64,000 bases of DNA from Candidatus Woesebacteria bacterium (GTDB lineage: Bacteria > Patescibacteriota > Microgenomatia > UBA8517): assembly GCA_016700095.1 (NCBI GenBank), contig CP065002.1, positions 867,141 through 931,140 on the forward strand, in the 5' to 3' direction. Under the pieces are notes generated by a model. The model had not been told where the DNA came from and ran no database searches. It worked only from the letters and a program-made list of their open reading frames with translations. Shown piece by piece: positions 10,351-31,941 of this stretch. Made by a program: the position numbers and the translations under genes. Every line of letters begins with the position of its first letter. Position 1 is the stretch's first letter.

Positions 10351-10496
10351 GTAATGTTAATTTATAAATTGTTAATCCAAGCAAACCAAGGTAGAGGTAT
10401 TTTGATAATTGAATTGCCCGACCGGGGTGATGTGTGGCAAGAAAAAAACAAACTATAAATAGAATTACCGATGTTATACTTACTAATACACGTTTC
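10351..10496. promoter_or_regulatory. Divergent intergenic region between the 902-aa GT-C gene (minus) and the YfhO/GT39 pair (plus). Presumed bidirectional promoter.
   Basis: This is the only strand switch to plus for multi-gene transcription in the first 30 kb. AT-rich with TATAAT-like hexamers. No experimental support. Confidence 0.3.
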
Positions 10497-12458: not shown

Positions 12459-12489
12459 TTATGATTGCAAATTATTGCATGTTTAGTCA

Positions 12490-13980: not shown

Positions 13981-14705
13981 GTGTGTAACTTTTTTGATAT
14001 ATACCTAGTCCAAAATACCAGAATATATGTTTGAATAAATATCGCCCATTTAACGGTTTGCAAATAGTTGCCGACTATCGCCGATTCACCGACTCTTTGT
14101 AAATATGTTACAGGTACTTCAACGAATGAAAGTTTGTTGGAAACGGTAAGTAAGGTTAATTGAGTATTAAAAAGAGGCGACTTCTCAAATCCCCACTTCC
14201 TTTTAAGAATATTTAGAGCTTTTCTAGAAAACAATTTATAAGTACAGCCCACATCCGTTAAAGCGTTGGTATTAAAAAGCACTTCAATAGTTTTTGCTTC
14301 AATTACATTGGCAAATTTACGAAACACGCCCATACCGGCACCGGAGAGTGACGAAATTAAACTCGTACGTGAACCAAGTACTACTTCAAAATCATTTGAG
14401 TAAACCAGTAGTCGCTCCAGGTCTTTTGCCAAAAAGCTTCCATCCGGTTCACACGCCACTATAAGATCACCTCTTGCCGTGTTTAATCCCTTCTGAAAGG
14501 CATATCCATATCCCTGGCGATCTTCGTATACTATTTTTACACCGGTTTTATTTACTTCTTGGTCTGTACCTTTTTGGGCATTATTGTTTACTACTATGAT
14601 TTCATCAACAAATTGTGTTTTTTGAAAACTTTCGATTACTCTGCGAATCGTTTTTTTCTCGCGGTATGTGGCTAAAACTAAAGAGACTGTTTTTCCTTTA
14701 TACAT
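13977..14705 (-). CDS. GT2, DPM1/GtrB-like polyprenol-phosphate sugar synthase (soluble form)
   Basis: VSLVLATYREKKTI...EIIVVNNN...ACEPDGSF; 242 aa. The Gtr-like arrangement with the adjacent small membrane protein and GT-C is described in the findings. Confidence 0.65.
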   Translation of the reverse strand: MYKGKTVSLVLATYREKKTIRRVIESFQKTQFVDEIIVVNNNAQKGTDQEVNKTGVKIVYEDRQGYGYAFQKGLNTARGDLIVACEPDGSFLAKDLERLLVYSNDFEVVLGSRTSLISSLSGAGMGVFRKFANVIEAKTIEVLFNTNALTDVGCTYKLFSRKALNILKRKWGFEKSPLFNTQLTLLTVSNKLSFVEVPVTYLQRVGESAIVGNYLQTVKWAIFIQTYILVFWTRYISKKLHT

Positions 14706-14707
14706 AT

Positions 14708-15139
14708 TTATTTACATTTATAAAATTCATAAACCGATATTGTGAGCCCCAAGATAAAAGCCTGAAACATATAAATCATTGTTCGCTCGGCCCACACGCC
14801 AACCCCTAGAGCGAGCAATAATTCCGCAAAGGCTAAAAAAAACAACGATATCACAAAAATAACTTTGCTAGTTGCCCCAAGCATTATTACGGCAAGAATC
14901 AAACTAATCATGACAATAATATTTATCGTTAGTGGCAAAAAGGGGTGAAAATATCCGGCAGAATGAAGCAAGACAAGAAGTATTAGAATAATATTATAGG
15001 TAAATAGACCGGAAAGATGTTTATTTGCCCATGCTTTTGTTTTGACCTCTTTATGTCCCCAAAAGGTTCTTGACAGTCGTTTATTTATGTACTTTTTTAG
15101 ATCTTTTAACATAATTATAAAGAGGAAATATGAGCACAC
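14708..15139 (-). CDS. Small 3-4 TM membrane protein, possibly a GtrA/GtcA-like lipid-sugar flippase. Function unproven.
   Basis: 143 aa with hydrophobic helices. Sits between a GtrB-like GT2 and a giant GT-C. No recognisable GtrA signature, and the true start is uncertain. Overlaps the 3' end of the upstream gene. Confidence 0.3.
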   Translation of the reverse strand: MCSYFLFIIMLKDLKKYINKRLSRTFWGHKEVKTKAWANKHLSGLFTYNIILILLVLLHSAGYFHPFLPLTINIIVMISLILAVIMLGATSKVIFVISLFFLAFAELLLALGVGVWAERTMIYMFQAFILGLTISVYEFYKCK

Positions 15140-18038
15140 ATATCACAACCGTCGCCAAACTTACAAATAGTCCAAAGTAATAATATTTCTGTGTGGTATA
15201 GAATATTGTAAATTCCTGTGTAGTGCTATTCCCGGGCATATACCAAGCGTTTGCGTATCCATGGGCACTAAAGTGTAGTGGTTTTCCCAAATATGAGGCG
15301 CTAACGATATTCCAGTTCGGACTATATTTTTCCAAAAACACTAGCAAGTAATTATCATTGATATTTTCCACCTTCACCTTGTACTTCGTTGGGTTAACTT
15401 TTGTAAAAGATACCGTTGGAGTATGTATCGTGTCAGCATTTTGTTCTATTAAAAAAAGCTTATTATCATAGATACGCTTAAAGGAGATATTTTCAAAATA
15501 TGTTTTACTTCTCTTCTCCCGACTATCAACTGGGATTTCTATCACCACATTCATCGTTGAACTTGCTCTGACTGGTTCAACAAAAATTTCTTTTTTATTC
15601 CAATCGGTATCTTCATCGACTTTAGTGGGTAAAACCTTATACTTCGCAGCTCCGCTTTCTTGGACTATATTAACATTCGGTGTATTACCATAGATATATT
15701 TGTATTCATATGAGAACAGATAATTGGCGTATGGATTGAATTCATCTACCGGGACAATTAGACTCTTCTCATTAATACCATCATTAAACACGATCAACAC
15801 ATTGTCGTTATTCAATAATTCTTCTCCTTTGATATGGAGATTTTCATTTCCCTTTAATACCAGATCTTTGCTGATCAGGTTACTGTTCTCAGGATAAACA
15901 ATATCCACATTATGTTCACCCTGCGTGACCTTAATATTTTTGAGTATGTAAAATGTATCGGTTTCAACAATTTCTGTATCTTTATTTAACAGATCCGGGA
16001 AAATTACGCTTAGATCACTTCCGTTGTAACCTCTTTTTTCGATCGCTAATTCATAAATTCCCTCAGGAACATTTATTAAATACCTTTGACGATTTCCAAC
16101 CGGATTACTGCCATAGGTCGTATTGTCTAACTGGAATATGTTTTTCTTGATATCTTGCGAATTATCTATCTTATTTACTTCACTGTCACCAGCGAGAGTA
16201 ATTACGCGATTTGGATCAAGATATGGCAGTAACGTATCAAATACAGAATCATCAGAATTATTTGTATATAGTCCGTTTGCAGTAAGAATTTTACCAGGAT
16301 AGTCAGCATTTTGGTAAAAAGTCCATTCACCGAAAACCAGTTTATCTTTTTCCGGTATTTCTTTTGAATGATATATGGATACGGCGTCATTTTTCATGAA
16401 TAAAGTATCAGCATTCAAAAACGATAGAGACTTAAATACCGAGTCGTAATTCTCCTGTTTGATATTATTATAGATTCCTTGCAATATAGGCTTTAGTCCC
16501 TTACCCAGAAAAACAAAGGATGGTGCCACGGTTTCTTTGGACGAAAATAGATTAAGAACGGTTTCTGTACCCCTATATCCCCATTTAAACTGTTCCAGTT
16601 CATCCTCGGGATAAACAACGATACGAGCACTACTCTCACTATTATCAAGATATTTTTTTGTTTCCCATACATAGTCGGGGATTTTAACAAAAAAACTATC
16701 TGATTTTTGTGGACGAAATATTTTACCTGTTATAAGTGGATACTCATAAAGTAAGCCTCCAATTACAAAAATTACTACTCCCAAATATATCAAGCGCTTG
16801 CCAAGTATTATATTGAGAATTTTCTTGTCACCAAACCTTTTTAATATATTTTCAACAAGTAATCCGGAAAGCACGGCATATGCCAATATCACGTAAGGCG
16901 TAAATATATACCATGGACTTCTGAAAAACGAAAAGTACGGTATATATTTAGCCATCAAATTATATAAACTACCTGTTGGTTCATGTAATCCGGCTCCCAT
17001 AAAGATACCGATTACCAACATAATTCCTGTATATACATACAAATAGTTTTTCTTATTGTTTAGTAAGATGTAGGAAATAATTACAAGCGTTGGAACAACA
17101 AAACTAAACAGAATAAAGGGGAGTTTATAAAAATAGTTTAATGCGTATGGAATATACATCGGAAAACCCGATTGATCAACGGCATACCAATCCCAAGCTC
17201 CTTGTAATCTAATAACATTCAGAAGGCTGGTGTTTTCAGATAATGCCGCAACCCAGTTTGTATATCCAATATTCTCCAGAGTTAATACTGCTCGATCCGC
17301 TAGCATAAAGTGCGAAAACGGTACAACCCAATATAAATTTGACATAATGATAACTACACTCATTAACATTGCACCTAAGAAGATATGTCTGATTTCTCGT
17401 TTTCTAAAAGGTAATATTGTTAGAAAGTAAATTATCACTCCACCCATTAATGTAATAATATATGCAGGATTTATCCCGGCACCTGAAGTAATCATGGAAA
17501 ACAAAACACTATAAAAGAGTAACTTCCCATTCGATAGGGCATCAAATACATATCGATTGGCTAACCCAATAAATAGCGGTAAACCTACCATAACTGCGAG
17601 GTTAGCAACTTTAACGTTTTCCCATGTGTTGAACAAATAAATATTATATGTATAAATAAATACAAGTATTAGCTGAGCAAGTTTATTGTTTTTAAGAAAG
17701 GTTCGCGAAAGATAATAAGAACCAAAAACAATTGAAGAAAACCAAAATACAAGTGAGATTATTTGCACATGCCGTAAATTAAATCCCAAAACATGAGGTA
17801 TAACTTGAATCAAATGAAAAAACCAACCGGAAGTTGACGTTGTCGCATCCGCGCCGGTTCCAATTGTGTCATTCCAAACAAAAAAGCGTCTTTCAAACCA
17901 GACCAGAGGATCAAGTGGAAAGTTGGTATCTAGTCCATTAATGATGACATCGGGTCTACCAACAAACCACAGCAATGGAGTTAGTGACATGGCAAACATT
18001 ATAATTGTAAGCCAATGCTCTTTAATTATTTGTTTCAT
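15081..18038 (-). CDS. Giant GT-C-like membrane glycosyltransferase (985 aa), AftD/DUF3367-like
   Basis: The N-terminal loop GRPDVIINGLDTNFPLDPLVWFERRFFVWNDTIGTG resembles the DTKLDL...W.P..G.G signature of alpha-(1->3)-arabinofuranosyltransferase-like proteins. About 14 TM helices and a roughly 550-aa extracytoplasmic C-terminus. Confidence 0.5.
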   Translation of the reverse strand: MKQIIKEHWLTIIMFAMSLTPLLWFVGRPDVIINGLDTNFPLDPLVWFERRFFVWNDTIGTGADATTSTSGWFFHLIQVIPHVLGFNLRHVQIISLVFWFSSIVFGSYYLSRTFLKNNKLAQLILVFIYTYNIYLFNTWENVKVANLAVMVGLPLFIGLANRYVFDALSNGKLLFYSVLFSMITSGAGINPAYIITLMGGVIIYFLTILPFRKREIRHIFLGAMLMSVVIIMSNLYWVVPFSHFMLADRAVLTLENIGYTNWVAALSENTSLLNVIRLQGAWDWYAVDQSGFPMYIPYALNYFYKLPFILFSFVVPTLVIISYILLNNKKNYLYVYTGIMLVIGIFMGAGLHEPTGSLYNLMAKYIPYFSFFRSPWYIFTPYVILAYAVLSGLLVENILKRFGDKKILNIILGKRLIYLGVVIFVIGGLLYEYPLITGKIFRPQKSDSFFVKIPDYVWETKKYLDNSESSARIVVYPEDELEQFKWGYRGTETVLNLFSSKETVAPSFVFLGKGLKPILQGIYNNIKQENYDSVFKSLSFLNADTLFMKNDAVSIYHSKEIPEKDKLVFGEWTFYQNADYPGKILTANGLYTNNSDDSVFDTLLPYLDPNRVITLAGDSEVNKIDNSQDIKKNIFQLDNTTYGSNPVGNRQRYLINVPEGIYELAIEKRGYNGSDLSVIFPDLLNKDTEIVETDTFYILKNIKVTQGEHNVDIVYPENSNLISKDLVLKGNENLHIKGEELLNNDNVLIVFNDGINEKSLIVPVDEFNPYANYLFSYEYKYIYGNTPNVNIVQESGAAKYKVLPTKVDEDTDWNKKEIFVEPVRASSTMNVVIEIPVDSREKRSKTYFENISFKRIYDNKLFLIEQNADTIHTPTVSFTKVNPTKYKVKVENINDNYLLVFLEKYSPNWNIVSASYLGKPLHFSAHGYANAWYMPGNSTTQEFTIFYTTQKYYYFGLFVSLATVVICVLIFPLYNYVKRSKKVHK

Positions 18039-19680
18039 ATTCTTTCTTTATTTCATCAGTAATTTCAATTAATGATTCAATATCTCCTTGCCATTTATAG
18101 GCTATAATTGCATTACTTGGAATATTATATTCTTTTATTGCATTAAATAACTTATCTTTATCTCTAAAGTATCCAAAACCTCGACCGTCATACTCTTTGT
18201 AACCCTCCTCTTTGATCTCCCAAAGAAATTTGTTTTCATAAAATTGGACAGGAAGTTTTTCCTCGCTATACCAAACCAATAAAGTCTGGCCCAATCCTGA
18301 TTGAAAAGGTAATATTTTGTCGGTTTCTGGAAGTCCAAAATAAGAAGTATCGCTTTGGGTATAAAAAACTACCCTGTCAGGTAATTTGGTATGGCTGGCT
18401 TTAACTGCTAGTAATATATTTTTGCGTATTATTCCATAATCAACAAGTGTTTTAATTTGTCCAGTTAGGGCAACAATGTTTGTAATTATAACTATCGAAA
18501 GCGCGATATGTTGTGCTTTTTTATTTTTAAAAAGAGAATCCACTATCATAATAAGGAGTATAAACACTCCAACGCTTGTTAAGTATAGATTTCTCGAGTC
18601 GAGAACATTAATCTTTCCAAACCGCTCTGGGGACAAAGCATATATTAAGCTGTTTAAAATTACATAAACATAGAAGAACAATATTATATTTTTCTTTTCT
18701 TTGTCTTTGTGTCTTATGTACACAATATATATAAGGTATGAAAATATTACAAAAAAGGCTAAGGATAACCCCTCAAGAATTATTTTCTGTGCAAACAAAT
18801 CAAAGGTGGTTGTCCCAATAACAGGTCGTAACGATTCGGGTATTTTCGCCGCAATGAAATAACTAATTTTTATGAAGTACTGCAGGGGAATCACTGTTTG
18901 CGTAACAGTCTTCATGGGAAACGTAAGTAAGTTGTAAGTAATATCGGTCAAGCTTTGAGTTTCTGTTATCATGGGAGTAGCTCCGACGTTGTGTATAAAT
19001 AACATACCCGCTCGAAGTACAAAAAAGGATACTCCTGTTGCCAATGTTGCTATAAGTTGTTTATGTTTATTTTTGTTATTACTTAGATACAAGATTAGGG
19101 CATACAAAGCAAACATACCAATAGCGATTTCTTTGAACAATAAAGCGGCGATAAGCAACACAATCGAGTATGACCATCTGCGAAAATTTCCAGTTTTTCC
19201 ATATTTTATAAAATAATAGATAGAGATCAACGTGAATGAGGTTGCTCCATGTGTATTAATATTTGCCCCAACCCACGTGGTTGCTTGATAAATTGAAGCG
19301 GAAACACCAAATAGTAATGCAACTATCGATGCATAATATTTCCGCTTTAAATTCAATAAGACTAACTTGTAAACAAGAACAACATTTACTAAGTGCCACA
19401 CTAAACTTGCTCCAAACCACATTTGGTAATTTAAGTTAAATAACTTAAATATTGTTAGAAATACTATTCTTTGAAGTGGATTGTAATGATTTATTTCTAA
19501 TCGAAAGTAGCTAATTACCGTCACAAGAGGATTCTTTCCGACATCTCCCAAAACATCCGCAAACGCCAACCATTCATCTTGAGCAAAAAACGATTGGAAA
19601 CATCTTATGTAAGAAAGACATACTACCGCCAAACATGCAAACAAACCATATTTATCTAGATATTTACTTTTATTTTCCAT
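18022..19680 (-). CDS. GT-C-like membrane glycosyltransferase of the 'FxQD(D/E)' subfamily
   Basis: FFAQDEWLAF follows the first TM helix. About 11 TM helices and a roughly 150-aa soluble C-terminus. Paralogous N-terminal motif to the genes at 23351..25321 and 25318..27987. Confidence 0.45.
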   Translation of the reverse strand: MENKSKYLDKYGLFACLAVVCLSYIRCFQSFFAQDEWLAFADVLGDVGKNPLVTVISYFRLEINHYNPLQRIVFLTIFKLFNLNYQMWFGASLVWHLVNVVLVYKLVLLNLKRKYYASIVALLFGVSASIYQATTWVGANINTHGATSFTLISIYYFIKYGKTGNFRRWSYSIVLLIAALLFKEIAIGMFALYALILYLSNNKNKHKQLIATLATGVSFFVLRAGMLFIHNVGATPMITETQSLTDITYNLLTFPMKTVTQTVIPLQYFIKISYFIAAKIPESLRPVIGTTTFDLFAQKIILEGLSLAFFVIFSYLIYIVYIRHKDKEKKNIILFFYVYVILNSLIYALSPERFGKINVLDSRNLYLTSVGVFILLIMIVDSLFKNKKAQHIALSIVIITNIVALTGQIKTLVDYGIIRKNILLAVKASHTKLPDRVVFYTQSDTSYFGLPETDKILPFQSGLGQTLLVWYSEEKLPVQFYENKFLWEIKEEGYKEYDGRGFGYFRDKDKLFNAIKEYNIPSNAIIAYKWQGDIESLIEITDEIKKEYETNN

Positions 19681-20707
19681 ATGTTTTCAGTTCAGTTTTT
19701 ATATTAAATACGTATTTAATGTAATAATACACTATAGTTATCAAAGTAAAATAAACTAATAAAGGATGAATCATGTATACATAATTTCTTTTGGAAATGG
19801 TAATTCGAACACCGTCAACAAGTGGAAATATTAGTGACATACCATACAGAATAAATAAATATTTTCGAAGCCTTACATCACTGTTGGTTAGTACTTCTCG
19901 GCCGACATACCCACCCTTTCCCATGTCCGACCTAAAAATGTTGTTTTTAACGCGCGACACAATCTTTTTCACATATGTAGCCAAACTAGTGGTTGAATAA
20001 TGAAGAGTTGGATCGTTTTTTGTGATTGCGACAAGTTGCTTATCTTTTATCAGTAGGTAGAAAAGTAATGCTATATATTCAGGATGTTTCGATAAATGCG
20101 GATAGTGTTTCTTCGTGTATGTTGCATCAATCATGCACCCTCCCGCCCAGAGCTCAAATACACTACTGTTAGAGGAATTTGCAAAATCAAATATAACACA
20201 ATCTTTTGTTTCGTTAATTACACGATATTTATTTCTCAGCGATGTGATTAATGATTTATCGTCTTTGGATTCCTTGTAAACAAATTGCGTAAAGGGGTCA
20301 CCGAAGCTATTTATGTAGTAGTTAATTTTTGAATAGTTCAAAGGTGTTTTGTACCCAGTGGTGATAACTGCACGCGTATTTTTTTGTGTCTTAATGGCTT
20401 TTAGTTTTAATTCAACACTATTTACATTTTCCAAAACTTCATCGCTGTCTATAAAAATAATGTAATCCCCGGTCGCCTTGTTGTAACCCACCTGTTTCCC
20501 ATATATTAAATCAACTTTATTATTACGATATATTTTACATTTGTATTTTTTACATATAGCTAGTGTCGTATCTGTCGAACCTCCGTCAGCAATTAAAATT
20601 TCTATGACGGCACGTGTTTTTTGTTTTCTTATCGAACTAAGAGTTTTTTCGATAGTCCTAGAAGAATTCAAAGTTGGTATTACAAAGCTTACTTTATCTT
20701 TTTTCAT
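19670..20707 (-). CDS. GT2 glycosyltransferase with a C-terminal TM helix
   Basis: VSFVIPTLNSSRTI...ILIADGGSTDTT...IFIDSDE (DXD), with a hydrophobic C-terminal segment. Confidence 0.75.
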   Translation of the reverse strand: MKKDKVSFVIPTLNSSRTIEKTLSSIRKQKTRAVIEILIADGGSTDTTLAICKKYKCKIYRNNKVDLIYGKQVGYNKATGDYIIFIDSDEVLENVNSVELKLKAIKTQKNTRAVITTGYKTPLNYSKINYYINSFGDPFTQFVYKESKDDKSLITSLRNKYRVINETKDCVIFDFANSSNSSVFELWAGGCMIDATYTKKHYPHLSKHPEYIALLFYLLIKDKQLVAITKNDPTLHYSTTSLATYVKKIVSRVKNNIFRSDMGKGGYVGREVLTNSDVRLRKYLFILYGMSLIFPLVDGVRITISKRNYVYMIHPLLVYFTLITIVYYYIKYVFNIKTELKTYGK

Positions 20708-20735
20708 TATTGGTTGTAAAAACTTTTAACCATTG

Positions 20736-21050
20736 TTATCGCGTTTTTTCGTGTTCGAGATATTGGTTGCATGGTAAATTTACTTTCGTATTCGCAATTT
20801 CCTCGGTAATTGGAAAACCACCTCTTTTATACCCTATTTCTTGATATGCGAGTGACAAATGTGGAAATGGTAGTTGATCGCAAGTTATTACCGCATGTCC
20901 ACCTCTTGGAACGTCCTTGAAGATTTTATGCATATAAAATTCCCGTTTGAATTTAAATCTAGAATTTTTTCCACTTTCGATTATTGTTAAATTGCCACGT
21001 TCATCTAATATGGTTTGGAGTTTAGTGAATTTGCACTTTTTTATGTCCAT
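20736..21050 (-). CDS. FdtA/WxcM-like cupin (sugar 3,4-ketoisomerase family), apparently truncated or degenerate after about 75 aa. Possible pseudogene remnant.
   Basis: [11 protein letters not shown]...[10 protein letters not shown]...PRGGHA matches the FdtA/QdtA N-terminal half. The conserved HxxKxxxQ...GLYIGP..W C-terminal half is absent; only 104 aa are present versus about 135 expected. Confidence 0.4.
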
Positions 21051-21106
21051 GGATTCTCAATACAGTTTTCAGCAAAGTATACAATATAGTTGCTATAATT
21101 ATATAT

Positions 21107-21574
21107 ATGAATAGTGATGTTTTTATCCATCCACTTTCGGATGTGAGGACAACCAACATTGGTTCAAAAACTAAAGTGTGGCAATTTTCAGTTATTCTTG
21201 AAGGGGCAGTTATCGGAAAAAACTGTAATATCAATTGTCAAACCTTCATCGAAAACGACGTCGTTATCGGCGACAATGTCACGGTAAAATGCGGTGTTTA
21301 TATCTGGGATGGAATACGGTTGAAAGACAATGTCTTTATTGGCCCAAATGTCACTTTTACTAACGATAATTTTCCGAGATCGAAACAATACCCGGAAAAA
21401 TATTTACCGATAATCATAGAAAAAGGTGCTTCGGTCGGTGCAAACTCCACTATTCTCGGCAATATTACAATAGGGGCAAACGCAATGATTGGAGCAGGTA
21501 GTGTGGTTACAAAAAACGTACCACAAAATCAACTTTGGATGGGAAGTCCGGCAAGATGTGTTAAAGAAATATGA
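21107..21574 (+). CDS. Left-handed beta-helix (hexapeptide-repeat) sugar N-acetyltransferase, FdtC/WxcM/PglD-like
   Basis: Repeating [LIV]GxN[VC]x[IV] hexapeptides ([50 protein letters not shown]). 155 aa. Confidence 0.7.
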
Positions 21575-22050
21575 ATATAAATATTGTTTACAACCACCTG
21601 ATTACCCTAAGAGCGAGAATAAGATCGCAGTTCTGGAAATTGTTTCTCAAAAGAATGGGAAAACATGTTGATATTATGGGGAATGTAAAAATCATGAGTC
21701 CGCAAAAAATATCAATAGGAAATAACGTGCTAGTAAATTCGGAAAGTAAATTAGGTGGGCAATGCGGTATCGAGATTGGAAATGATGTGTTGATTGGCTA
21801 CAACGTAAATATCGTTTCGCAAAATCATGCGTATGACGACAGGAACATACCAATTAAAAATCAAGGATTTTACGGACGGAAAATTGTAATTAAAGACGAC
21901 GTATGGATTGGTGCAAACGCCGTAATTCTTCCCGGTGTTACTCTTGGAAAAGGATCCATTGTGGGTGCCAACGCGGTTGTGACAAAAGATGTTGAACCTT
22001 TCACAATAGTGGGCGGAGTACCGGCAAAATTAATAAAACAAAGAATCTAG
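21571..22050 (+). CDS. Hexapeptide-repeat O-acetyltransferase (LacA/NodL/CysE-like)
   Basis: [33 protein letters not shown]...GGVPAKLI is the classic maltose/galactoside acetyltransferase C-terminal signature. ATGA overlap with the preceding acetyltransferase. Confidence 0.8.
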
Positions 22051-23156
22051 TTTTTTAATAAATAGTTCACGATAATTTCCGACGGTTTAATATTAGTTTT
22101 TACAGGTTTTCTTCTTCTTTTTTTATAGTCGGTAAGAAAATCATTTATGATTCCGGTGTCTCCTTTTGACAGTACTACATTTTCGTTTAACCCCTCAATT
22201 TGCTCAGTGTGTTCTCTTAACAACAAACACGGTTTCCCCATTAAGTAAGCTTCAAACTGATTTGTCGCCCCATCGGTTGCGATATATTCAGCTTTTTCCA
22301 TTAATTTAATAAAGGTTGAATAATTAATCAAAGGCATTATTTTTATATTCTTATTTTCCATATCCAGCGATTTAATTATTTTTACTGTGATAGGGTGATT
22401 AAACAGCACACACACAAGTTTCTTTTCTGAATTATCTATCACAGTTTTAATTATCTTTTTCGACCAATTTTTGCGAAATATTACATGTTCTTGTCTGTGT
22501 AATATTAAAATGTAATATTTCTGTTTTGGTATAACATTTTTTTGAATAGTTTGTTTCTTATACCAATTAAACCCTTCAAGTAAAGTATTGAAATGGGTGT
22601 TTATTTTGGGTTTATGGATATTTTTGAGATTATTTGTTGCCCATGTACTCGGAGGAAACAACACATCGGCAAGTCGAATATTGATATTCCTACAAATTTC
22701 TTCGGGAAACGGTTCTTTCAAATTCTTAGACAAATCTCCACTTTCTATGTGAATAATTTTTATGTGTAATATCTTGGCGATAATTGCACCAATTGTAGTT
22801 GTAACTGGATCGCCATATATAATTAAATTGATATTTTTTCTTGCCTGCATTTTTTCTTTATGCAAGATATCAAGACCGAGAATAAAAGCTTTGACCGCCC
22901 ATATTCCAAAACGGAATACTGAAGGCTTAGTGCTTTTGTTTATAAGTAAAGTCGTTTCTAATTGTCCAGTATACTTTTCAACCTCTTTTACGCGAACATT
23001 GTTTTGACCGGACAAAATAATTTTATATTTTTGATTTCTTTTCTTTAGTTCTATCAATATCGGAGCAACACGAATTAATTCAGCGGTAGTGCCAACCATA
23101 AAAACAAAAAGTGTTTTTCTTTTTGTTTGATTATTAACTTGCTTTGTCATTTTCAA
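22047..23156 (-). CDS. UDP-N-acetylglucosamine 2-epimerase family protein (WecB/NeuC-like, Epimerase_2)
   Basis: [50 protein letters not shown] and [24 protein letters not shown] align with WecB VLTVFGTRPEAIKMAPLV, VHGDTTTTLA...VGHVEAGLRT and SPWPEEANR...HFSPTE. Confidence 0.7.
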
Positions 23157-23350
23157 GTAAGTGCAATTTTATATCTTATATATTACTGTTACAATCATTT
23201 CCTAAAAACATAATATGCGATAAATATCTATTTTCATGTCAAGTATAACTAGACTTATAAGTCTTTATAATGAGAGGAGAATTATACGAGTACGCGAAAT
23301 TTTATTAAGAAACCGCATAAATCCCATATTTTTTATCTTTCACTTTAATT

Positions 23351-25321
23351 TTACATTACCAATTCTTGGATTATTGGACTGATGATTACATAGCTTGGAG
23401 TGAAATTATTCTGGCTTTGTAAGTATATATTTCTAAGCAAAGTTCCACCAGGCGGTATTATAAACTGAATATGACTCCCATTTTCTGAATTGTTTTCAAC
23501 TATCGCCTGAGCTTCTTTGGAGTCAAATATTGAACCAAACGTATCATACTCCCAAGATACATGTATTACGTTTTTCAGTATCGTGTTATCAAGTTTAACA
23601 ACTACACTCAAAGGTGCCATAGAATTTATATCATAACTTGAAAAATCGGCTTTTGTACGATTATCTACTTTGTCCCAATTGGGATCTATATTTAAACTCG
23701 TATCCCAGAGCAAACTCTCCCGCAAACGCCAGCTCGTGTTTACAACGGAGTCTGGAGTTACCATGAAAGAATAAATATTCTCAATAGGCAAATTTCTTTC
23801 CGTATAAATTGACTGTATACTCGACAAGTTCTCGGGGTAAATAATTTTATCTATCGAGACATCTAAATTGTAGGCAAACGCTGCCTCCGTAGATAGTTGT
23901 CCTACACGGGAAGCATCTCCAACGCTATATTGTAAATCTTTAAGCGATGCATCGGTAAAAATAATAATCGGTGTGTCTTCAGCTTCCACCTCTTGCCGGA
24001 CAGAATTGAACATACGTCTTGCAGTTACACTGTACTTGTCAACAAATTTATATTGAGTGCTAACTGCGTAATACAAGTGTAAAAATATCAAAATAAAAGC
24101 AATAATAGTTGTTAACGTTGTAACGTGTGATTTATTTTTTGTATCGGATAAGTACAATATGGTTATAAAAAGCGGTGCAACAAACGAAAGTGCCATCATA
24201 TAACGATAGTCACTTGATATGTAAAACTCCGGCTTAACCAGTATTAGACTTAAGGCAGCTCCTGCAAACATAGACAATATAATCAAGATTTGTTTCTTAT
24301 TTATTGAAAAAATAAAATTAAGAACTAAAAATATAAATAGGGCTAATCCAATCAGCGTAGATTCCAACACTACAACGTCTGATATTTTATCGAAAAACAA
24401 TTTCGCAGGCAAAAGATACAATATTATCGCTAATACACTGTACCTTTTAATCCTATTTGACATAAGTGAAAGTAAAATAATGTAAATAATTAGAGGTAGA
24501 AAATATGTCGACAACGACTCTAAATTATATTTTAAAATTGGGTTCGCCAAAAACTTCTGCTGGAGATCCGTCGGTACTATACTATTTGCCAAACTTGATA
24601 ATACCGACGAGACAATCGTGTATTTATCGGCTTTAAATATCGCATTCCCCGTGACTTCATACGTACCGTAATCAATCACATATGAAATCGGGTGAATGAA
24701 AAGCTGCATTAAAAACATGAATAAATAAACAGACGCATTGCGTACACTCTCCTTAACTTTCACCTTGTTAGAATACAATACGATAATTGTTAGTATTGGT
24801 ATTATAATTCCAGTAAACCGATGTGATGCTGACTCCAAGGTGGCAATGAAAAAAAGACAAGATAGTAAAATATCTTTTTTCTCTCGTAGTTTGTAATACC
24901 GAATTAAACTAGCAATTGATAGCAAATAAAAACTAAGTCCCAGCAGTACTCCCGCACCATCTCCGGCAAACATAAATAGCGATTGCTGTCCAGTATATCC
25001 GCTTGCAAATATAATGGTTAATAAATATATTTTATATTTCCCCAACTTTGCTATTTGGTGCAAGAGACAGAAAAGTGCATATACACAAAATGCAAAAAAT
25101 AACAGAGCAATAAGATGGTAATAAAATGAATTTTTCCCAAATAGAGAATTGATTATGTACACAATGTACGTATTTATATGATATGGAAAATCTGGGACAA
25201 TTTTTTCTTGTGCGAAATACAAATGAGTATAATCATCATTCCAAAAATACATCATGAGGGTCTGTCCATAAGAAATAATAATCGTACATATAATAAGAAT
25301 GTTGGGAATAAATTTTTTCAT
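23351..25321 (-). CDS. GT-C-like membrane glycosyltransferase, 'YFWxDD' subfamily (656 aa)
   Basis: YGQTLMMYFWNDDYTHLYF follows TM1. About 12 TM helices and a roughly 200-aa soluble C-terminus. Tandem paralog of 25318..27987. Confidence 0.45.
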   Translation of the reverse strand: MKKFIPNILIICTIIISYGQTLMMYFWNDDYTHLYFAQEKIVPDFPYHINTYIVYIINSLFGKNSFYYHLIALLFFAFCVYALFCLLHQIAKLGKYKIYLLTIIFASGYTGQQSLFMFAGDGAGVLLGLSFYLLSIASLIRYYKLREKKDILLSCLFFIATLESASHRFTGIIIPILTIIVLYSNKVKVKESVRNASVYLFMFLMQLFIHPISYVIDYGTYEVTGNAIFKADKYTIVSSVLSSLANSIVPTDLQQKFLANPILKYNLESLSTYFLPLIIYIILLSLMSNRIKRYSVLAIILYLLPAKLFFDKISDVVVLESTLIGLALFIFLVLNFIFSINKKQILIILSMFAGAALSLILVKPEFYISSDYRYMMALSFVAPLFITILYLSDTKNKSHVTTLTTIIAFILIFLHLYYAVSTQYKFVDKYSVTARRMFNSVRQEVEAEDTPIIIFTDASLKDLQYSVGDASRVGQLSTEAAFAYNLDVSIDKIIYPENLSSIQSIYTERNLPIENIYSFMVTPDSVVNTSWRLRESLLWDTSLNIDPNWDKVDNRTKADFSSYDINSMAPLSVVVKLDNTILKNVIHVSWEYDTFGSIFDSKEAQAIVENNSENGSHIQFIIPPGGTLLRNIYLQSQNNFTPSYVIISPIIQELVM

Positions 25322-27987
25322 TGTGAATCACTACTAAGTTCATCAATCATGTCGTTACTAATCAATTCATTGAGTGATAAACTTCTCACGCTTATATTTG
25401 AAATCTCGAAACTAATTGGGATAGAGAATTTGATGTTAAATCTATCAACAGAAGTACCTCCTGCAGGAATAACAATCTTGTACGTATGATATTTGCCATC
25501 TATAACAATCGGAAAACTACTGCTTTGTTTGTCTATATCTCCTTTATCCGTCTTCCAACTGATAGTCGCAAATGAAATTGGTTCAGCTTGTTCGTATAAA
25601 ATATCCCATTCATTTTTATTACTAGCAAGTGAAAGGGGATCGTCGTAATACGTATGCGCTTGAGCAAACGAAATTGAATTAAATCGATCTTCCACCACTT
25701 CAAACTCCAATAGAGATGGTGAATCGTCTGTTTGAGTTTTGCTGATGACCATTCGTACATATCGAGCATCAGTTGCGGCAAACTTTTCCACAATCTGTTC
25801 TACATTTTTTCTCTCAGGTCCATTTACAACTGATTTTCGAACTGACCAGTTTTTCCGGTCAACTGAAGTTTCTATGCTGTAAGTCACCGGTGCAAGCGAC
25901 GTTTTCCAATTCGTCCATATTACACTTCCAATTTTTTTAACTTTACCCAAATCAACAATCAATTCTTCGTGTCCTTTTTCATTCCAATAAATTCTGTGTC
26001 CTTGCCATGTAGTTGTAATATTTTTATCTACAGCATACCCAACTTCCCTAAATCTCCAATCAGACAGACTATTGCTTACTACTTCCGCATAATAATCGTT
26101 TCTAGCCTTGAGATACTCAAGTATCAAAAGCTTCTCTTTTAGGGAATATTTAATTGGTTTATAATTCGTTGGAGGTATTCCTTTGGCAGCAGAAATAGTA
26201 AGTTTTAACTCAACAGGTACCAACGGGATTGCCACCACATCACTTAATGATGTAAATACGGTGTTTTCCGACCCGTTATTGAGAAGTTCTCGCATTTTGT
26301 AAGTATTGTCTACTAGTCCATTTTTCCCGTAATAGTATGAATACAAATAGTCAATTTCCATGTCCCCATTTGCAATATATAAAACCGTTTCATTGAAGTC
26401 TGTTAAATGTCGCACGTCATATCTGTCAACATCATAATACATGGCAAGGGCAGTCGATTCCGGCATAGAACCTACCGAAAAAAAATCATAGAAGCGTTGA
26501 GGGTAAGGCGGTTCTAGAGACACGTCAAAATAAAATCCAGATCCTTTTTCAATATCAGGCACATATGTTAATAATTTAGTATAAAATTCTCTTGTAGTTT
26601 TACTGCGTGTTTCAACTAAATTAGCTTGATAAGTAAATCCGAAATAAAGGTGCATGGAAAGTATTCCTATTAAAAGACCCTTGCCTAAAAACGACTGTTT
26701 ACTTTTTTTGTTTTCCCCAAGCTTAATAATAGAAACAAATATTATTGCAAACCCAATCACTACATAACTAAAGTAGCGATGTGTTGTTCCCCATATAGCA
26801 CTTGGATACTGAACATAGTAACCAAATACTTGTGTCACAATTACAATAAAGGCAAAGAAAGCTACCTTGGACAGCTTTTTATTCTTGTGTATATTTTGAA
26901 TACAAATTGTAAAACTAAAGACAATAAACTCAATCCCTAGAGCTCCAGAAAATATATCTGCAATTTGCCGATACCAAAGGTAGTCTAATGAATAAAGAAA
27001 TAAGTTTAATATCATTCCCAAAAAAAGAATTCCAATCCCAATAATTTTCTTCTTTGTTGCCTCATGACACATCGCCAGTAGATAAAAAACGGAAAACAAA
27101 CCAAACGCAAAACCAGAAACTACAAAGGCTTGGTCTGAAACTATACGGGGTAAAACGAAGGTTAACAGTTTTTCTTGGAGTGGATATGCAAAAACAGAAT
27201 TACCAATATTTGCAAATAATGGCGCCAAAATTTCTACATTTCCTGCAACTAATTCATTGACTAAACTTACTAAACCCGGCCCACCGAATCCTTCATTGGT
27301 TAGATAACGAAAGTAGAATATAAACAAAAATGGAATCTGTCGAATACCATATTTTAAAAGTGATGTGACCTTTGAAATATTTACTAGAAACAGTGCATCT
27401 AAAACCACAATCGGGACAATAAGCGAGTGAGAACGAATAAATACAAACTCTGTTGCTGCCCAATAAAAAAAGACAGCGAGAAAATAATGAACTTTCTTTT
27501 TCTTTTTTGTAAACTTAACAATCTGTTCAAAAGTTAAGAACGCCAAAATAAGTCCAAAGTTAGTTTGCCATGAATTAATAACTCGAAACATAATGTCACT
27601 ACCTATATAACCTGCTGCAAATATAAGTGTCGAATAGTACGCATATTTTATTTCACCATACAATTCTCGGACAAATCGATGAAAGAAATAGGTTGCGATA
27701 ATATATGTGATAAAACCTATAAAAAAATATCCGAACGGGTCTTTGCCGAAAAGTGGAAAAAACGGAACAAACGGTGTAACTAAATATTTATATGCACCAT
27801 GGCCAATAATACCTTCTCCGAAACTCCCCGCGGCTCCTTCCGGGTTTTGAAGTTTAAAAATAAGAGCTGAATCGTCTTGCCAAAAGTACATTTGTAAAGT
27901 CTGTCCGTATGCAATCAGTACGACAATAATTACAAGAAAGATAAACGATAATTTACCCAAGCGAATGTTTTTAATTCTTTTTTTCAT
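25318..27987 (-). CDS. GT-C-like membrane glycosyltransferase, 'YFWxDD' subfamily (889 aa), with a C-terminal discoidin (F5/8 type C)-like carbohydrate-binding domain
   Basis: YGQTLQMYFWQDDSALIF follows TM1, with about 13 TM helices. In the C-terminal region (about nt 25700..26100) the segment WQGHRIYWNEKGHEELIVDLGKVKKIGSVIW...YSIETSVDRKNWS...ARYVRMVI...LLEFEV matches the discoidin-domain pattern. Confidence 0.5.
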   Translation of the reverse strand: MKKRIKNIRLGKLSFIFLVIIVVLIAYGQTLQMYFWQDDSALIFKLQNPEGAAGSFGEGIIGHGAYKYLVTPFVPFFPLFGKDPFGYFFIGFITYIIATYFFHRFVRELYGEIKYAYYSTLIFAAGYIGSDIMFRVINSWQTNFGLILAFLTFEQIVKFTKKKKKVHYFLAVFFYWAATEFVFIRSHSLIVPIVVLDALFLVNISKVTSLLKYGIRQIPFLFIFYFRYLTNEGFGGPGLVSLVNELVAGNVEILAPLFANIGNSVFAYPLQEKLLTFVLPRIVSDQAFVVSGFAFGLFSVFYLLAMCHEATKKKIIGIGILFLGMILNLFLYSLDYLWYRQIADIFSGALGIEFIVFSFTICIQNIHKNKKLSKVAFFAFIVIVTQVFGYYVQYPSAIWGTTHRYFSYVVIGFAIIFVSIIKLGENKKSKQSFLGKGLLIGILSMHLYFGFTYQANLVETRSKTTREFYTKLLTYVPDIEKGSGFYFDVSLEPPYPQRFYDFFSVGSMPESTALAMYYDVDRYDVRHLTDFNETVLYIANGDMEIDYLYSYYYGKNGLVDNTYKMRELLNNGSENTVFTSLSDVVAIPLVPVELKLTISAAKGIPPTNYKPIKYSLKEKLLILEYLKARNDYYAEVVSNSLSDWRFREVGYAVDKNITTTWQGHRIYWNEKGHEELIVDLGKVKKIGSVIWTNWKTSLAPVTYSIETSVDRKNWSVRKSVVNGPERKNVEQIVEKFAATDARYVRMVISKTQTDDSPSLLEFEVVEDRFNSISFAQAHTYYDDPLSLASNKNEWDILYEQAEPISFATISWKTDKGDIDKQSSSFPIVIDGKYHTYKIVIPAGGTSVDRFNIKFSIPISFEISNISVRSLSLNELISNDMIDELSSDSQ

Positions 27988-28043
27988 AAATTATTCGACG
28001 TTTTATTCGTGGACTTATATTCTCATTTTTCACTATTTATACA

Positions 28044-28808
28044 TTATTTAAAAATATTACTTTTATATATGTTTAGGTTATTTAATATGTAAAGCAGTAA
28101 AACCGCAAGTGAATTAATTCCAAATTTCAAACCGGGTAGCAATTTAATAGAAGAAGACTCTTCGTAAAATCTAACAGGAATTGGTATTTCTCCAATTCTT
28201 ATTCCCTTGGCTATAGCAGAAACCGTGAATTGCTGATCAAAAATAAAATCATTTGAAAATCGCTGAAACGGTACAGTTTCGAGAGTGGTTGCGGAGTAAG
28301 CCCGCATACCCGACATGTGTTCACTAAAATTTACACCCAGTACTGGATTGGCAAATAATGTATACATCCGATTAAACAAGTATTTATGAAGGGGCATTCC
28401 GCCATCTAGCGCTTCTTTGCGAGTTCGTATTCTACTCCCAAATGTGTAACCGTATCGCCCTTGTAAAATTGGCCGAATAAGTTCTTCTATCAAAGTTGCG
28501 TCATACTGATAATCGGGATGAATCATTACAACCACTTGAGGTTTGTACTGAAGCGCTTCCCAGTAACACGTTTTCTGATTACCACCGTAACCAAGATTTT
28601 TCGGATGTTTATAAACTTCAATCCCCAATTTTTGAGCGGTTTTGACAGTTTTATCCTTACTGCCATCATCAACCAATATTATCTTTTTGACAATTTTTTT
28701 GTTTATGTCAGCGAAAGTTTTTTTGAGCGTTTTTTCAGCATTAAATGCTGGCATAACGACTATAACTTTTGGCTTTCCCAACTTTCTTGCGCGTCTTTCT
28801 CTATTCAT
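28044..28808 (-). CDS. GT2, DPM1/GtrB-like polyprenol-phosphate sugar synthase (soluble form)
   Basis: VIVVMPAFNAEKTL...IILVDDGSKDKT...HPDYQYD; 254 aa with no TM. Confidence 0.7.
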   Translation of the reverse strand: MNRERRARKLGKPKVIVVMPAFNAEKTLKKTFADINKKIVKKIILVDDGSKDKTVKTAQKLGIEVYKHPKNLGYGGNQKTCYWEALQYKPQVVVMIHPDYQYDATLIEELIRPILQGRYGYTFGSRIRTRKEALDGGMPLHKYLFNRMYTLFANPVLGVNFSEHMSGMRAYSATTLETVPFQRFSNDFIFDQQFTVSAIAKGIRIGEIPIPVRFYEESSSIKLLPGLKFGINSLAVLLLYILNNLNIYKSNIFK

Positions 28809-28918
28809 ATTCTTAATACATCGATGTATATGGATTGCCTAACGTGGTAACACTGGGTACTGCTTTATATTTATTATAACTAACTCCATTCATTAACATA
28901 GAAGTTAAATGCCCACTT

Positions 28919-30994
28919 TTACAAATTCCCGTGACTATTTGGAAATACGATATCAGTATCTAATTTAATTGGATTTGGGGTCCATCCTCCAAAATCTTCG
29001 GATACATCCGCCTCAAACACTTCCAGTTTATCAAAATATACATCCGACTGTGATTCTTGGTATACACCAATACTCACAACAGCATAACTCGAATTTTTAG
29101 GTATAGCGTGTGCAAATTGTTGTTTGGTAAACTCACTACTTGTTATCCGCGGTGATATTCGAACCGCGGTTCTATTTTTACGTTCGGTCGCATCACTTGC
29201 ATTTTTAAAGTATTCAACAAAGACGAAACCATCTCTGGAGTTCAATCCTTCAAGTTTCGACACATGGGTTATCATTAATCCCTTTATATTATCTACACTA
29301 AAATAATTTGAGCTCCAGCTTCGAAAGTTAACTTTTTCATTTTTGTTAAAGGTAAACTCCAATAACAGATTTTTTACTCTCACATCCCTATCGGGAATTT
29401 TTACTACTACAAAATCAGACTCGGGTGCTAATGCAGGATTTGTAATCGAAAAAATCGAATAATCGGAATATTCTCGAATTACAAGTGCTGGATACGCCTC
29501 TTCAAGTAATTCTACCGGTTTGTTCCAGTATTTAAGAGAATTCATTGTCCCTTGGGACATCCACCAATAAAATTCATTTGTCATCCATTCTAGGTTTATC
29601 GCTACGAAGTCTGCATCATTAAATTCCTCCATACTATAATTATGTTTTTGATCAAACGGTAAACGTTCATAATTAACGCTATCAAAATTAACCGAGGAAT
29701 GTGCTGCTATCTTTGAACCCGGAGGTATATTTTCCTCGATCCATTTTTTAGTAATCAAATAGTTCCATTCCTGTCTATACTCATTTCCCACTACAACAGA
29801 TTTTGATATATTTTCAAACAGAGCTAGTCCAATTAGAGGAATAATAATTAATAAACCCACCTTTTTTGGAACTGATTTTGATATTTGTACTACAAATGCT
29901 GATGCAAAGATCATTAATAATGGAGTTACCGTAATAAAGTTTCTCGTGTAAAACCCTCCTCCAGTAAGAAATGTTATGACAATCAAAAAAGGTACAATCA
30001 CAGATAGCAGCATAAGCTTCTCTTTAAATCTGGTAAAAATACTTATTATTCCCAAAATTACGAGCACGCTTGTAACCCTACCCAAACCATAGTGGTACAA
30101 ATATGAATAAGGGAAAAAATCGAATTCATTTTTACCTGTTTTATATTTCAAAGATACATCTACTATCTGTTCTCTAAATTGCTCAAAGTGAATAAAGTGA
30201 TAAGGATTTATTATTAAAGTAATAACCATTATCGACAATCCTGCAATAAATATTTTTTTGTCAAACAAACAACCTATTAAAGCGCTTTTGTTTTTAAAAT
30301 GAAAATAAAAATGAGCTAAAAGTAAAGGTGGTATGGCGTAAACATGAAACTTTGTGGAAAAAGAAAGTCCAGCTCCAATTCCCGCTAAAAGATAACTCTT
30401 AATACTTGGTTTATCAATAATTCGATAGGTTAGTAATAGTGAAAGTAATAAAAAAAATGCATTATAAATATCTGGTAAAGCGAGGTGGCTGTTTAGAACT
30501 TGTCTGTAATTTACAGCTACAAACACAGATGATAACAATGCAACTTCTTTTGCAAACATTTTTTTTGCAAGTAAATAAGTTAACAAGACATTTCCAACAC
30601 CAACTGATGCCGCAATAATTCTACCCCAAGTAAGAACATGTATTTCTCTAATCCCTAATATACTGAGTTGTAAGATTTTATTAGATTCTTCGGTTGTTAG
30701 TGGAAAGTTATACAATCCGTCGACGAACATGCCAATGTTTGATATGTAAAACTTCCCCCAAGAAAATGGTATAAATATTAATTTAAAAAATAGAGCGTTT
30801 AGTATCGGTATTAAACCCGGATATGCATAGTGAAGGGAATAGCCGTTTGCATCTAGCGTACCATCAATCAATATATAAATCCCTTGAGAATAACTCATTC
30901 CTTCGTCAGCATGATATGGTGGATAACCGGGATAAATACCAGTAAATCGCAAATAAGCTGCAGCAAAAAGAATTGCTAGTAATATTTTTTTCAT
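28919..30994 (-). CDS. GT-C glycosyltransferase, ArnT/PMT (GT39/PMT_2)-like (691 aa), with a roughly 300-aa extracytoplasmic C-terminal domain
   Basis: LRFTGIYPGYPPYHADEGMSYSQ (DE motif after TM1), with about 11 TM helices. Confidence 0.65.
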   Translation of the reverse strand: MKKILLAILFAAAYLRFTGIYPGYPPYHADEGMSYSQGIYILIDGTLDANGYSLHYAYPGLIPILNALFFKLIFIPFSWGKFYISNIGMFVDGLYNFPLTTEESNKILQLSILGIREIHVLTWGRIIAASVGVGNVLLTYLLAKKMFAKEVALLSSVFVAVNYRQVLNSHLALPDIYNAFFLLLSLLLTYRIIDKPSIKSYLLAGIGAGLSFSTKFHVYAIPPLLLAHFYFHFKNKSALIGCLFDKKIFIAGLSIMVITLIINPYHFIHFEQFREQIVDVSLKYKTGKNEFDFFPYSYLYHYGLGRVTSVLVILGIISIFTRFKEKLMLLSVIVPFLIVITFLTGGGFYTRNFITVTPLLMIFASAFVVQISKSVPKKVGLLIIIPLIGLALFENISKSVVVGNEYRQEWNYLITKKWIEENIPPGSKIAAHSSVNFDSVNYERLPFDQKHNYSMEEFNDADFVAINLEWMTNEFYWWMSQGTMNSLKYWNKPVELLEEAYPALVIREYSDYSIFSITNPALAPESDFVVVKIPDRDVRVKNLLLEFTFNKNEKVNFRSWSSNYFSVDNIKGLMITHVSKLEGLNSRDGFVFVEYFKNASDATERKNRTAVRISPRITSSEFTKQQFAHAIPKNSSYAVVSIGVYQESQSDVYFDKLEVFEADVSEDFGGWTPNPIKLDTDIVFPNSHGNL

Positions 30995-31941
30995 TTGATA
31001 GCTTCAGCTTTCCAGAAGTAGCAAAATCGGTCGAATGGCTGGTTTTTTACTAATTTATTACCGTATATACTTGTAAACTCCAACATTTTATCGTAAAACG
31101 GTATTTTGTATAACGCAGGAATTAATATCGTTGAAAAAAATAAAAGTCTTTCTATTCTATGCGGGATTATTTTCCATTTTACAAACTTTGAGTTAAGAAA
31201 CAATTTATAATAATCTCCTTTTGTAAATTGCCTTTCATCCTCACCGAGTGCAAATTGTGGAAACGTTGGAAAAACTTTTCTTAGTTTTAATAATTTGAAC
31301 AAACCACGACCGGTAAAACCAATTGGATTATGTAAGTTGGGGTCAACTGTATATAATATTCCTCCCTTTTTTAAAACCCTATAACTCTCATCTAAAATAC
31401 ATTCCGGATCGGCCACATGATGAAGAATATTAATTGCAACAACTACATCAAAGGTATCAGATCTAAAAGGGAGTTTTCTCGCATCACCAACAACAAAATC
31501 ATTATTGGGAAATTTTTCTTTGGCTCTAATCATTTGTTTTTTAGATAATTCCAACCCAACAACCCGTCTTCCTCTGATATGTGATGTTGATACCCCATTA
31601 CCACAACCAATGTCGAGAACTGCATCGGTTAACTTGGTCGGTATATAATTTGCAGCTTCTCCCGATTCTTCCCAGAATTTTAATTTTTTAAATATTTGCA
31701 TATTCTTTTTGTATACGCTTAATGCACTTTTTGTAACTCCCTTTTGCCACTCATCTTCCCAGGCTTCAGCCTCTATTTCTAAATATGGGTCAAGTTTGGT
31801 AAAAACAGGAACGCCGTTTTCTATCTCATACTTTACCGAATTTGCTGATATTAAAGTATTGTTCTTTCTAATCAATTTCCGCTTTGATATAGGATCAACA
31901 AGAATATCCAGAAGTTTTTTATTTATTTTTTGATTTGGCAT
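30991..31941 (-). CDS. Class I SAM-dependent methyltransferase with an N-terminal Trm112-like domain that has lost its zinc-binding cysteines
   Basis: LLDILVDPISKRKL...YEIENGVPVF parallels Trm112 LLxILVCPxCKGxL...YPIxDGIPVLL with C->D/S substitutions. Motif I VLDIGCGNGVST. Confidence 0.65.
   Translation of the reverse strand: MPNQKINKKLLDILVDPISKRKLIRKNNTLISANSVKYEIENGVPVFTKLDPYLEIEAEAWEDEWQKGVTKSALSVYKKNMQIFKKLKFWEESGEAANYIPTKLTDAVLDIGCGNGVSTSHIRGRRVVGLELSKKQMIRAKEKFPNNDFVVGDARKLPFRSDTFDVVVAINILHHVADPECILDESYRVLKKGGILYTVDPNLHNPIGFTGRGLFKLLKLRKVFPTFPQFALGEDERQFTKGDYYKLFLNSKFVKWKIIPHRIERLLFFSTILIPALYKIPFYDKMLEFTSIYGNKLVKNQPFDRFCYFWKAEAIK

Follow-up and report, generated by a model that had tools for sequence, protein, structure and literature searches.

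We analyzed a 64,000-nt stretch of a Candidatus Woesebacteria genome (contig CP065002.1, positions 867,141 to 931,140; hereafter the window), in which an earlier note, made from the letters of the DNA alone, had singled out three open reading frames (ORFs) as members of a possibly undescribed clade of membrane glycosyltransferases (GTs) of the GT-C type. The ORF listing of the window contains all three as minus-strand genes, here called A, B and C (Table 1), and translation confirmed in each of them the quoted motif, an aromatic residue followed at a distance of one residue by Gln or Asn, Asp, and Asp or Glu, placed after the first transmembrane helix (TM1). B and C are adjacent in tandem, as the note had said, and are joined by an ATGA in which the stop codon of C overlaps the start codon of B (CAATGAAA). 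The common N-terminal arrangement was also found, namely a short K/R-rich leader, one hydrophobic helix (TM1) and then the acidic motif, whereas the CFQS read at the end of TM1 of A is not a family-wide feature; likewise, the Gln/Asn position is present in A, B and C themselves but variable across the C/B family. In the 49 window ORFs with 150 amino acids (aa) or more, 19,987 residues in total, we found three occurrences of the pattern [FYW]-x-[QN]-D-[DE], all at residues 26-35 of A, B or C, and this confinement to the three N-termini excludes chance. Base composition is even throughout the region, and the public labels of the three genes are merely 'hypothetical' or 'discoidin domain-containing'.

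Table 1. Features of the window discussed in the text (positions are those of the window; EL, external loop).
Feature	Position	Strand	Details
Gene A	18022..19680	minus	552 aa; locus tag IPM62_04470
Gene B	23351..25321	minus	656 aa; locus tag IPM62_04500
Gene C	25318..27987	minus	889 aa; identical to P0001, 'discoidin domain-containing protein', Candidatus Woesebacteria
Motif of A, FFAQDEW	19570..19590	minus	residues 31-37; checked by translation
Motif of B, YFWNDD	25232..25249	minus	residues 25-30; checked by translation
Motif of C, YFWQDD	27871..27888	minus	residues 34-39; checked by translation
A, H65-Y-N-P68	19477..19488	minus	EL1; H65 and P68 invariant; resembles SHKSYRP of TMTCs
A, K183-E184	19129..19134	minus	directly after TM5, outer face (EL3); family consensus FKEITIG
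A, R363-N-L-Y366	18583..18594	minus	EL5, between TM9 and TM10
C, R185	27433..27435	minus	invariant; just past TM5, outer face; counterpart of K183 of A
C, R404-Y405 (TTHRY)	26773..26778	minus	invariant; external loop before the penultimate transmembrane helix
C, membrane domain	26563..27987	minus	residues 1-475; 13 helices, GT-C
C, extracytoplasmic alpha/beta domain	26188..26562	minus	residues 476-600
C, CBM32/discoidin domain	25690..26079	minus	residues 637-766; a beta-sandwich follows at the C-terminus
GT2 upstream of C	28044..28808	minus	directly adjacent to C; presumed donor synthase
GT2 upstream of A	19670..20707	minus	11-nt overlap with the start of A; N-terminal GT-A domain
AftD-like GT-C	15081..18038	minus	985 aa; directly downstream of A, 17-nt overlap
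Small membrane protein	14708..15139	minus	143 aa as listed; about four hydrophobic segments by sequence reading
902-aa membrane protein (GT-C-type)	7642..10350	minus	no Pfam match; NCBIfam MmpA trehalose-lipid delivery, E 1e-7, far below cut-off
ORF with FdtA/WxcM-like start	20736..21050	minus	104 aa; first ~57 residues match the N-terminus of FdtA/WxcM-like sugar isomerases (131-residue model)
GT-C-type gene	3333..4724
GT-C-type gene	10434..12458
GT-C-type gene	12490..13980
GT-C-type gene	28919..30994
GT-C-type gene	36689..38773
GT-C-type gene	55184..56608
GT-C-type gene	57907..59553
GT-C-type gene	59556..61268
GT-C-type gene	61322..63148

Judged by their sequences, B and C are clearly simple paralogs, 23% identical over 585 residues (BLASTP, E 9e-21; the C/B-family profile matches B at E 2e-126), B being a divergent copy that lacks the carbohydrate-binding module CBM32 found in C. 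When A was compared with B and with C by pairwise BLASTP, no significant similarity was detected (E 0.016-0.078), a result that would suit a convergent or coincidental origin of the N-terminal motif in proteins that are otherwise unrelated. Against such an origin, hhalign comparison between the profiles of the A family (alignment A2, 31 sequences) and the C/B family (alignment A1, 38 sequences) gave a probability of 99.65% and E 5e-25 over 514 columns; GFFQQDEW was placed on MYFWQDD and DSRNLY on TTHRYL, both in register, and the alignment continued through the extracytoplasmic C-terminal domain. Searches of the window ORFs pointed the same way, since the A profile retrieved C (E 7e-6) and the C/B profile retrieved A (E 3e-8), with no ORF outside the other group matching either of them; scored against single sequences, the A profile gave E 4.9e-5 for B and E 0.002 for the best canonical PMT_2 paralog. 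The motif, moreover, is absent from every other window ORF. Convergence is thus extremely unlikely, and the unrelatedness of A to B and C is refuted by the match between the two profiles. By these comparisons A, B and C form one clade of two sister families, with A about 14% identical to B and C. The proposal of a single subfamily in three copies therefore survives as far as the common clade is concerned and is to be replaced by two families within it.

None of the three proteins reached the gathering threshold of the Pfam models PMT_2 or PMT. A scored 18.1 bits against PMT_2 (E 0.0033), below the cut-off of 26.1 bits, B had no Pfam match, and C matched the discoidin (F5/8-type-C) domain only, with no match to PMT_2; at E<0.01, PMT_2 was matched by 7 of the 31 A-type members and by 2 of the 38 C-type members. 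In keeping with the statement of the earlier note that they could not be assigned to a named family, no NCBIfam model was reached at threshold by A, B or C, and a full-text literature search found no paper describing this clade. The HMMER search against Pfam also returned no strong match of the membrane domains to a characterised family other than glycosyltransferases. For eight other window ORFs a match to PMT_2 or PMT was obtained (E 4.3e-6 to 3e-10); that of 59556..61268 scores 24.7 bits, slightly under the PMT_2 cut-off. Profile–profile comparison with these PMT_2 paralogs revealed remote homology to bona fide members of the family, with a probability of 95.5% and E 1.5e-8 for the C-family profile and 90.2% and E 1.5e-6 for the A-family profile, both matches spanning about 120-130 columns from TM2 to TM5. 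Both are far weaker than the match of the two profiles to each other, and this difference, together with an additional extracytoplasmic domain, agrees with the claim that A, B and C are distinct from canonical PMT_2 proteins. When the family profiles were compared by hhalign with the single AftD-like, YfhO-like and 902-aa sequences of the window, no significant match was obtained. Because the PMT_2 and PMT thresholds are not reached, MIR and TPR domains are absent and a conserved outer domain of their own is present, the three proteins are not members of GT39 in the curated sense. The clade stands at the fringe of PMT_2 and would probably receive its own family if characterised; it is previously unnamed, yet it is a conventional branch of known membrane glycosyltransferases.

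We then considered the fold. The AlphaFold2 (AF2) models of A (predicted local distance difference test, pLDDT, 90.1; predicted template-modelling score, pTM, 0.90) and of C (pLDDT 91.7, pTM 0.87) are confident and have the same order of helices, and structure comparison, which the earlier note had recommended as a check, revealed the helix arrangement of a GT-C membrane domain. The fold listing, whose figures are unlabelled, included Pmt4 (20.7), Pmt2 (18.9), STT3B (18.1), ALG12 (17.2), AglB (16.6), AftA (16.0), PglB (15.2), Pmt1 (14.9), ArnT (14.6) and AftD (13.0); AftD was the sole long match of the C model in the Protein Data Bank (PDB). A consists of an 11-helix GT-C membrane domain and an extracytoplasmic alpha/beta domain (residues about 430-552) that holds the invariant stretch PFQSG.GQT, the counterpart of which in C is FSVGSMPEST. 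The CBM32 (F5/8 type C) domain of C scored over the Pfam threshold and was matched as a beta-sandwich fold. The AF2 helices give an odd number of spans, 11 in A and 13 in C, with the N-terminus inside, and Lys plus Arg make up 35% of the short inside loops and 6% of the short outside loops in C, against 32% and 8%, respectively, in A. This predicted topology places the conserved residues listed in Table 1, the alpha/beta domain and CBM32 all outside. The acidic motif is accordingly predicted, from the helix count and the positive-inside statistics, to lie on the outer face and not in the cytoplasm.

In A, B and C the acidic pair sits 3-6 residues past the end of the TM1 helix, in the first extracytoplasmic loop. 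The A type has F-x-Q-D-[ED]-W in 226 of 241 sequences, the remaining 15 being truncated, carrying an N-terminal fusion or reading D-E-[FIL]. Among C/B-type sequences (96 examined), D-D is present in all 95 with an intact N-terminus, and the residue preceding it is Q in 75, R in 8, I in 7 and another (K, V, N, H or W) in 5. Thus D35 of A is invariant and E36 nearly so, D38-D39 of C are invariant, and the pair is D29-D30 in B. The canonical PMT_2 paralogs of the window read TADEA, NADEA, TPDEA, NWDEV or HADEG at the same place, and the extended hhalign alignment lays QDEW of A on NADEA, in its low-confidence part. For the C family the extended alignment to these paralogs leaves D-D about 10 residues off D-E and was not relied on, so the equivalence of the C/B pair to D-E goes via A. 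The corresponding pair is D77/E78 in Pmt1, D55/E56 in ArnT and DD in the TMTCs (PMC7801869). Since the pair is a classical motif of the clan (PMC7801869) and also appears as xADE, xPDE or xWDE in the canonical paralogs, it is a superfamily-wide GT-C/PMT-clan motif and does not define the clade. The earlier note was therefore mistaken in taking it as the definition of a subfamily; its comparison of the position with that of the Asp-Glu of PMT and ArnT is supported by the invariance of the pair in homologs, the low-confidence alignment of A and the placement on the outer face.

A carries a set of four PMT-clan motifs, D35-E36, H65-Y-N-P68, K183-E184 and R363-N-L-Y366. All four are invariant or nearly so, and they are recognised by loop position and pattern and not by direct alignment to TMTC or ArnT. 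They occupy topological positions equal to those in TMTC1-4 and ArnT, with DD/DE and H..P in EL1, K-E after TM5 and R-x-x-Y before TM10. In TMTC, ArnT, PMT and OST proteins, the motifs SHKSYRP, KET(Q)xxT and ERxxY bind sugar, phosphate and metal; the Lys of KET(Q)xxT binds phosphate and its Glu binds metal, while the Arg of ERxxY binds the donor phosphate (PMC7801869). We propose D38-D39 of C, where the first external loop begins, as the catalytic or metal-binding pair, and R185 and R404 are candidate phosphate ligands. B retains R168 and R373-Y374, the counterparts of R185 and R404-Y405 of C; C also has Y66.

Genes that could supply the donor lie close by. The best matches of the GT2 directly upstream of C were AglJ, PpgS, a dolichyl-phosphate hexose transferase, the dolichyl-phosphate (Dol-P) mannose synthase of Pyrococcus and GtrB, all of them polyprenyl-phosphate sugar synthases. 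The order GT2 then C recurs in a Daviesbacteria genome. The protein P0088 (locus L003, 2131..5217) is a natural fusion in which an N-terminal GT2, 64% identical to the one upstream of C, precedes a C-type GT-C, and P0163 is the corresponding fusion of an N-terminal GT2 with an A-type GT-C. From the adjacent GT2, with its likeness to Dol-P and undecaprenyl-phosphate (Und-P) sugar synthases, the recurring gene order and the GT2 fusions, we infer that A, B and C would use a polyprenyl-phosphate-sugar donor. A fusion of this kind combines, within a single polypeptide, a synthase on the cytoplasmic side with a transferase that faces outward. On reading of its sequence, the C-terminal part of the GT2 upstream of A looks hydrophobic.

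Downstream of A the gene order is also conserved. Among 27 related loci sampled from species-representative genomes, the A-type gene is followed directly by an AftD-like homolog in 17, or in 18 if a match about 3.5 kb downstream is counted, and in 12 loci the next gene after the AftD-like one encodes a homolog of the small membrane protein (36-52% identity). We conclude that A functions together with the downstream AftD-like GT-C, as part of a conserved module. The small membrane protein had no family match; a GtrA-like flippase was considered as a guess only and received no support from the family searches, and its assignment as a lipid-sugar flippase or an accessory subunit is speculative. 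None of the genes beside A, B or C was recognisable as a MATE or SMR flippase.

Taken together, the fold, the homology, the conserved residues, the topology and the gene linkage give us good confidence that A, B and C are GT-C-fold integral-membrane glycosyltransferases of the PMT/ArnT/TMTC-like branch and constitute a Microgenomates-type clade. Several observations weigh against this assignment. Identity to solved GT-C enzymes is only 8-12%, and a PDB search with both HMMER family profiles found no GT-C by sequence; searches with single proteins likewise gave no PDB match for the membrane part, and Ninjurin-2, the only profile match for A, was rejected as spurious. CBM32 matches filled both structure-search lists of C and left its membrane domain without a clean GT-C match, so the fold of C is assigned from its profile link to A, its helix layout and the one match to AftD. 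The equation of D-D/D-E with the catalytic Asp of PMT and ArnT rests on position and on the low-confidence part of the hhalign alignment. The scores of the GT2 upstream of C all fall far under the equivalog cut-offs, so the donor is assigned at the level of its class. Finally, some proteins of GT-C fold are not transferases, such as PIG-U/GAB1, which took ranks 14, 16 and 17 in the comparison with solved structures. A, B and C could likewise have the fold and no glycosyltransferase activity, serving as a scaffold or acceptor-presenting subunit, as PIG-U does in the GPI transamidase, or they could be a polymerase or ligase that uses polyprenyl-diphosphate oligosaccharides. However, the acidic pair, the basic residues and R-x-x-Y/R-Y do not vary in hundreds of homologs, B among them, which indicates an active-site signature and not a scaffold, and the existence of fusions to a GT2 synthase is consistent with an enzyme pair of the donor-acceptor kind. 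We therefore regard a role other than that of a transferase as very unlikely and retain the assignment to the GT-C glycosyltransferases.

With 11 transmembrane helices A resembles the TMTCs, whereas C, with 13, resembles ArnT, which belongs to CAZy family GT83 and has 13; the TPR domain is absent from A, B and C. Within the glycosyltransferases, the three could be strict protein O-mannosyltransferases (GT39), transferring mannose from polyprenyl-phosphate-mannose to Ser/Thr residues of secreted or S-layer proteins. Identity to the GT39 enzymes Pmt1, Pmt2 and Pmt4 is 8-11%, and the scores of A, B and C against the corresponding Pfam models (PMT, PF02366; PMT_2, PF13231) are, as described above, under threshold. 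A MIR beta-trefoil in the large luminal loop is a feature of eukaryotic PMTs (PMC7759382). By contrast, the Pfam scan found no MIR domain in A, B or C, and the loops in the AF2 models of A and C are helical; the three have instead the C-terminal alpha/beta domain, often accompanied by CBM32, which points to a carbohydrate acceptor, so that the acceptor here is probably a glycan. The close linkage to an AftD-like GT-C of the polysaccharide type also argues against GT39, and we consider this alternative unlikely.

A further likeness is offered, by description, by the GT136 pentofuranosyltransferase ORF12 of Citrobacter youngae, in which, as in C, a GT-C membrane domain is followed by a C-terminal carbohydrate-binding module. 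The catalytic Asp of ORF12 comes right after TM1 and R349-Y350 are essential, to be compared with D38-D39 and R404-Y405 of C, and ORF12 too is encoded beside a polyprenyl-phosphate sugar synthase, in a three-component system (PMC11127046). In mycobacterial EmbC and AftD and in ORF12 the C-terminal carbohydrate-binding module binds the glycan acceptor (PMC11127046). The two differ in that the GT136 module is immunoglobulin-like (PMC11127046), whereas that of C is CBM32, and in the lack of a recognised MATE or SMR gene beside A, B and C. The presence of CBM32 and the example set by EmbC, AftD and GT136 make a polysaccharide or glycoconjugate of the cell surface, and not naked protein, the probable acceptor.

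We propose the following sequence of events for these GT-C glycosyltransferases. A GT2 at the cytoplasmic face would move a sugar from a nucleotide sugar to polyprenyl phosphate; for C and B this would be the GT2 at 28044..28808, and for A possibly that at 19670..20707 or at 13977..14705. A flipping step would bring the lipid-linked sugar to the outer face, where conserved basic residues, K183 and R363 in A or R185 and R404 in C, would bind the donor phosphate. The invariant Asp-Asp or Asp-Glu pair with which external loop 1 begins would act as catalytic base, metal ligand or both, and the sugar would be transferred to an extracytoplasmic acceptor. The alpha/beta outer domain shared by the two families, together with CBM32 in C and in about one third of the A-type relatives, most likely hold this glycan acceptor.

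Searches for homologs gave 93 relatives of C, nearly all of 830-960 aa and with a discoidin domain, and more than 190 relatives of A, about one third of which have a discoidin domain at the C-terminus; the word-indexed search returned two relatives of B only. In an exhaustive HMMER scan the A profile matched 629 cluster representatives at E <1e-30, 9,674 at E <1e-10 and 44,323 at E <1e-3, which suggests a compact core grading into a broader GT-C population. Most of the 27 sampled loci belong to Woese-, Davies-, Levy- or Gottesmanbacteria or to generic Patescibacteria/Parcubacteria records. Thirteen of them are titled 'uncultured Gammaproteobacteria', from metagenome-assembled genomes of binchicken/SRP co-assemblies (one an 810-kb 'chromosome'), and one is titled 'Woesearchaeota archaeon'. 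For the thirteen, names and sizes point to placeholder titles; altogether the labels look like placeholders or misassignments and not like true taxonomic spread, and the clade is found here only in Microgenomates-type bacteria of the candidate phyla radiation (CPR). Tandem duplication of A-type genes is frequent in other Microgenomates genomes, with copies about 24-37% identical to A, whereas the tandem in the window is of the C/B type. The clade seems to have diversified via repeated local duplication.

It is possible, though for now a tentative suggestion on which we would not insist, that the A type and the C/B type amount to a new GT-C family, or two, at the level of CAZy, specific to Microgenomates and building a novel surface polysaccharide with the products of partner genes. 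If so, the conserved partners would be the GT2, the AftD-like GT-C and the small membrane protein, CBM32 would hold the growing glycan, and in CPR bacteria the system would correspond to the assembly of arabinan in mycobacteria or to the three-component systems that modify glycans outside the cytoplasm. The ultra-small bacteria concerned are probably episymbiotic. Recognition of the GT-C relationship supplies candidate catalytic residues, a likely donor synthase, an AftD-like partner and seed alignments for a family model. This is a gain in annotation for the biology of the CPR envelope; it introduces no new mechanism and leaves the understanding of GT-C mechanism unchanged.

Other parts of the window deserve brief mention. 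Between the two GT-C operons lies the short ORF with an FdtA/WxcM-like start, which had no match beyond its first ~57 residues and looks like the remnant of a truncated or rearranged gene; Pfam gave no support for reading its C-terminal half as an aminotransferase remnant. The 902-aa membrane protein shows weak tblastn similarity to stretches within the AftD-like genes of other loci and is possibly another highly divergent GT-C. In all, the window is a glycosylation island with about fourteen GT-C-type genes, comprising the eight PMT_2/PMT ORFs, the AftD-like gene, a YfhO-like gene, the gene of the 902-aa protein and A, B and C. Besides these it encodes seven GT2 and two GT4 enzymes, four methyltransferases, an epimerase, acetyltransferases and two Wzx-like flippases. 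The density of GT-C genes (3333..63148 in the window, in a genome of roughly 1.3 Mb) is unusually high for a reduced genome, and these tiny-genome bacteria clearly invest heavily in a surface glycan.

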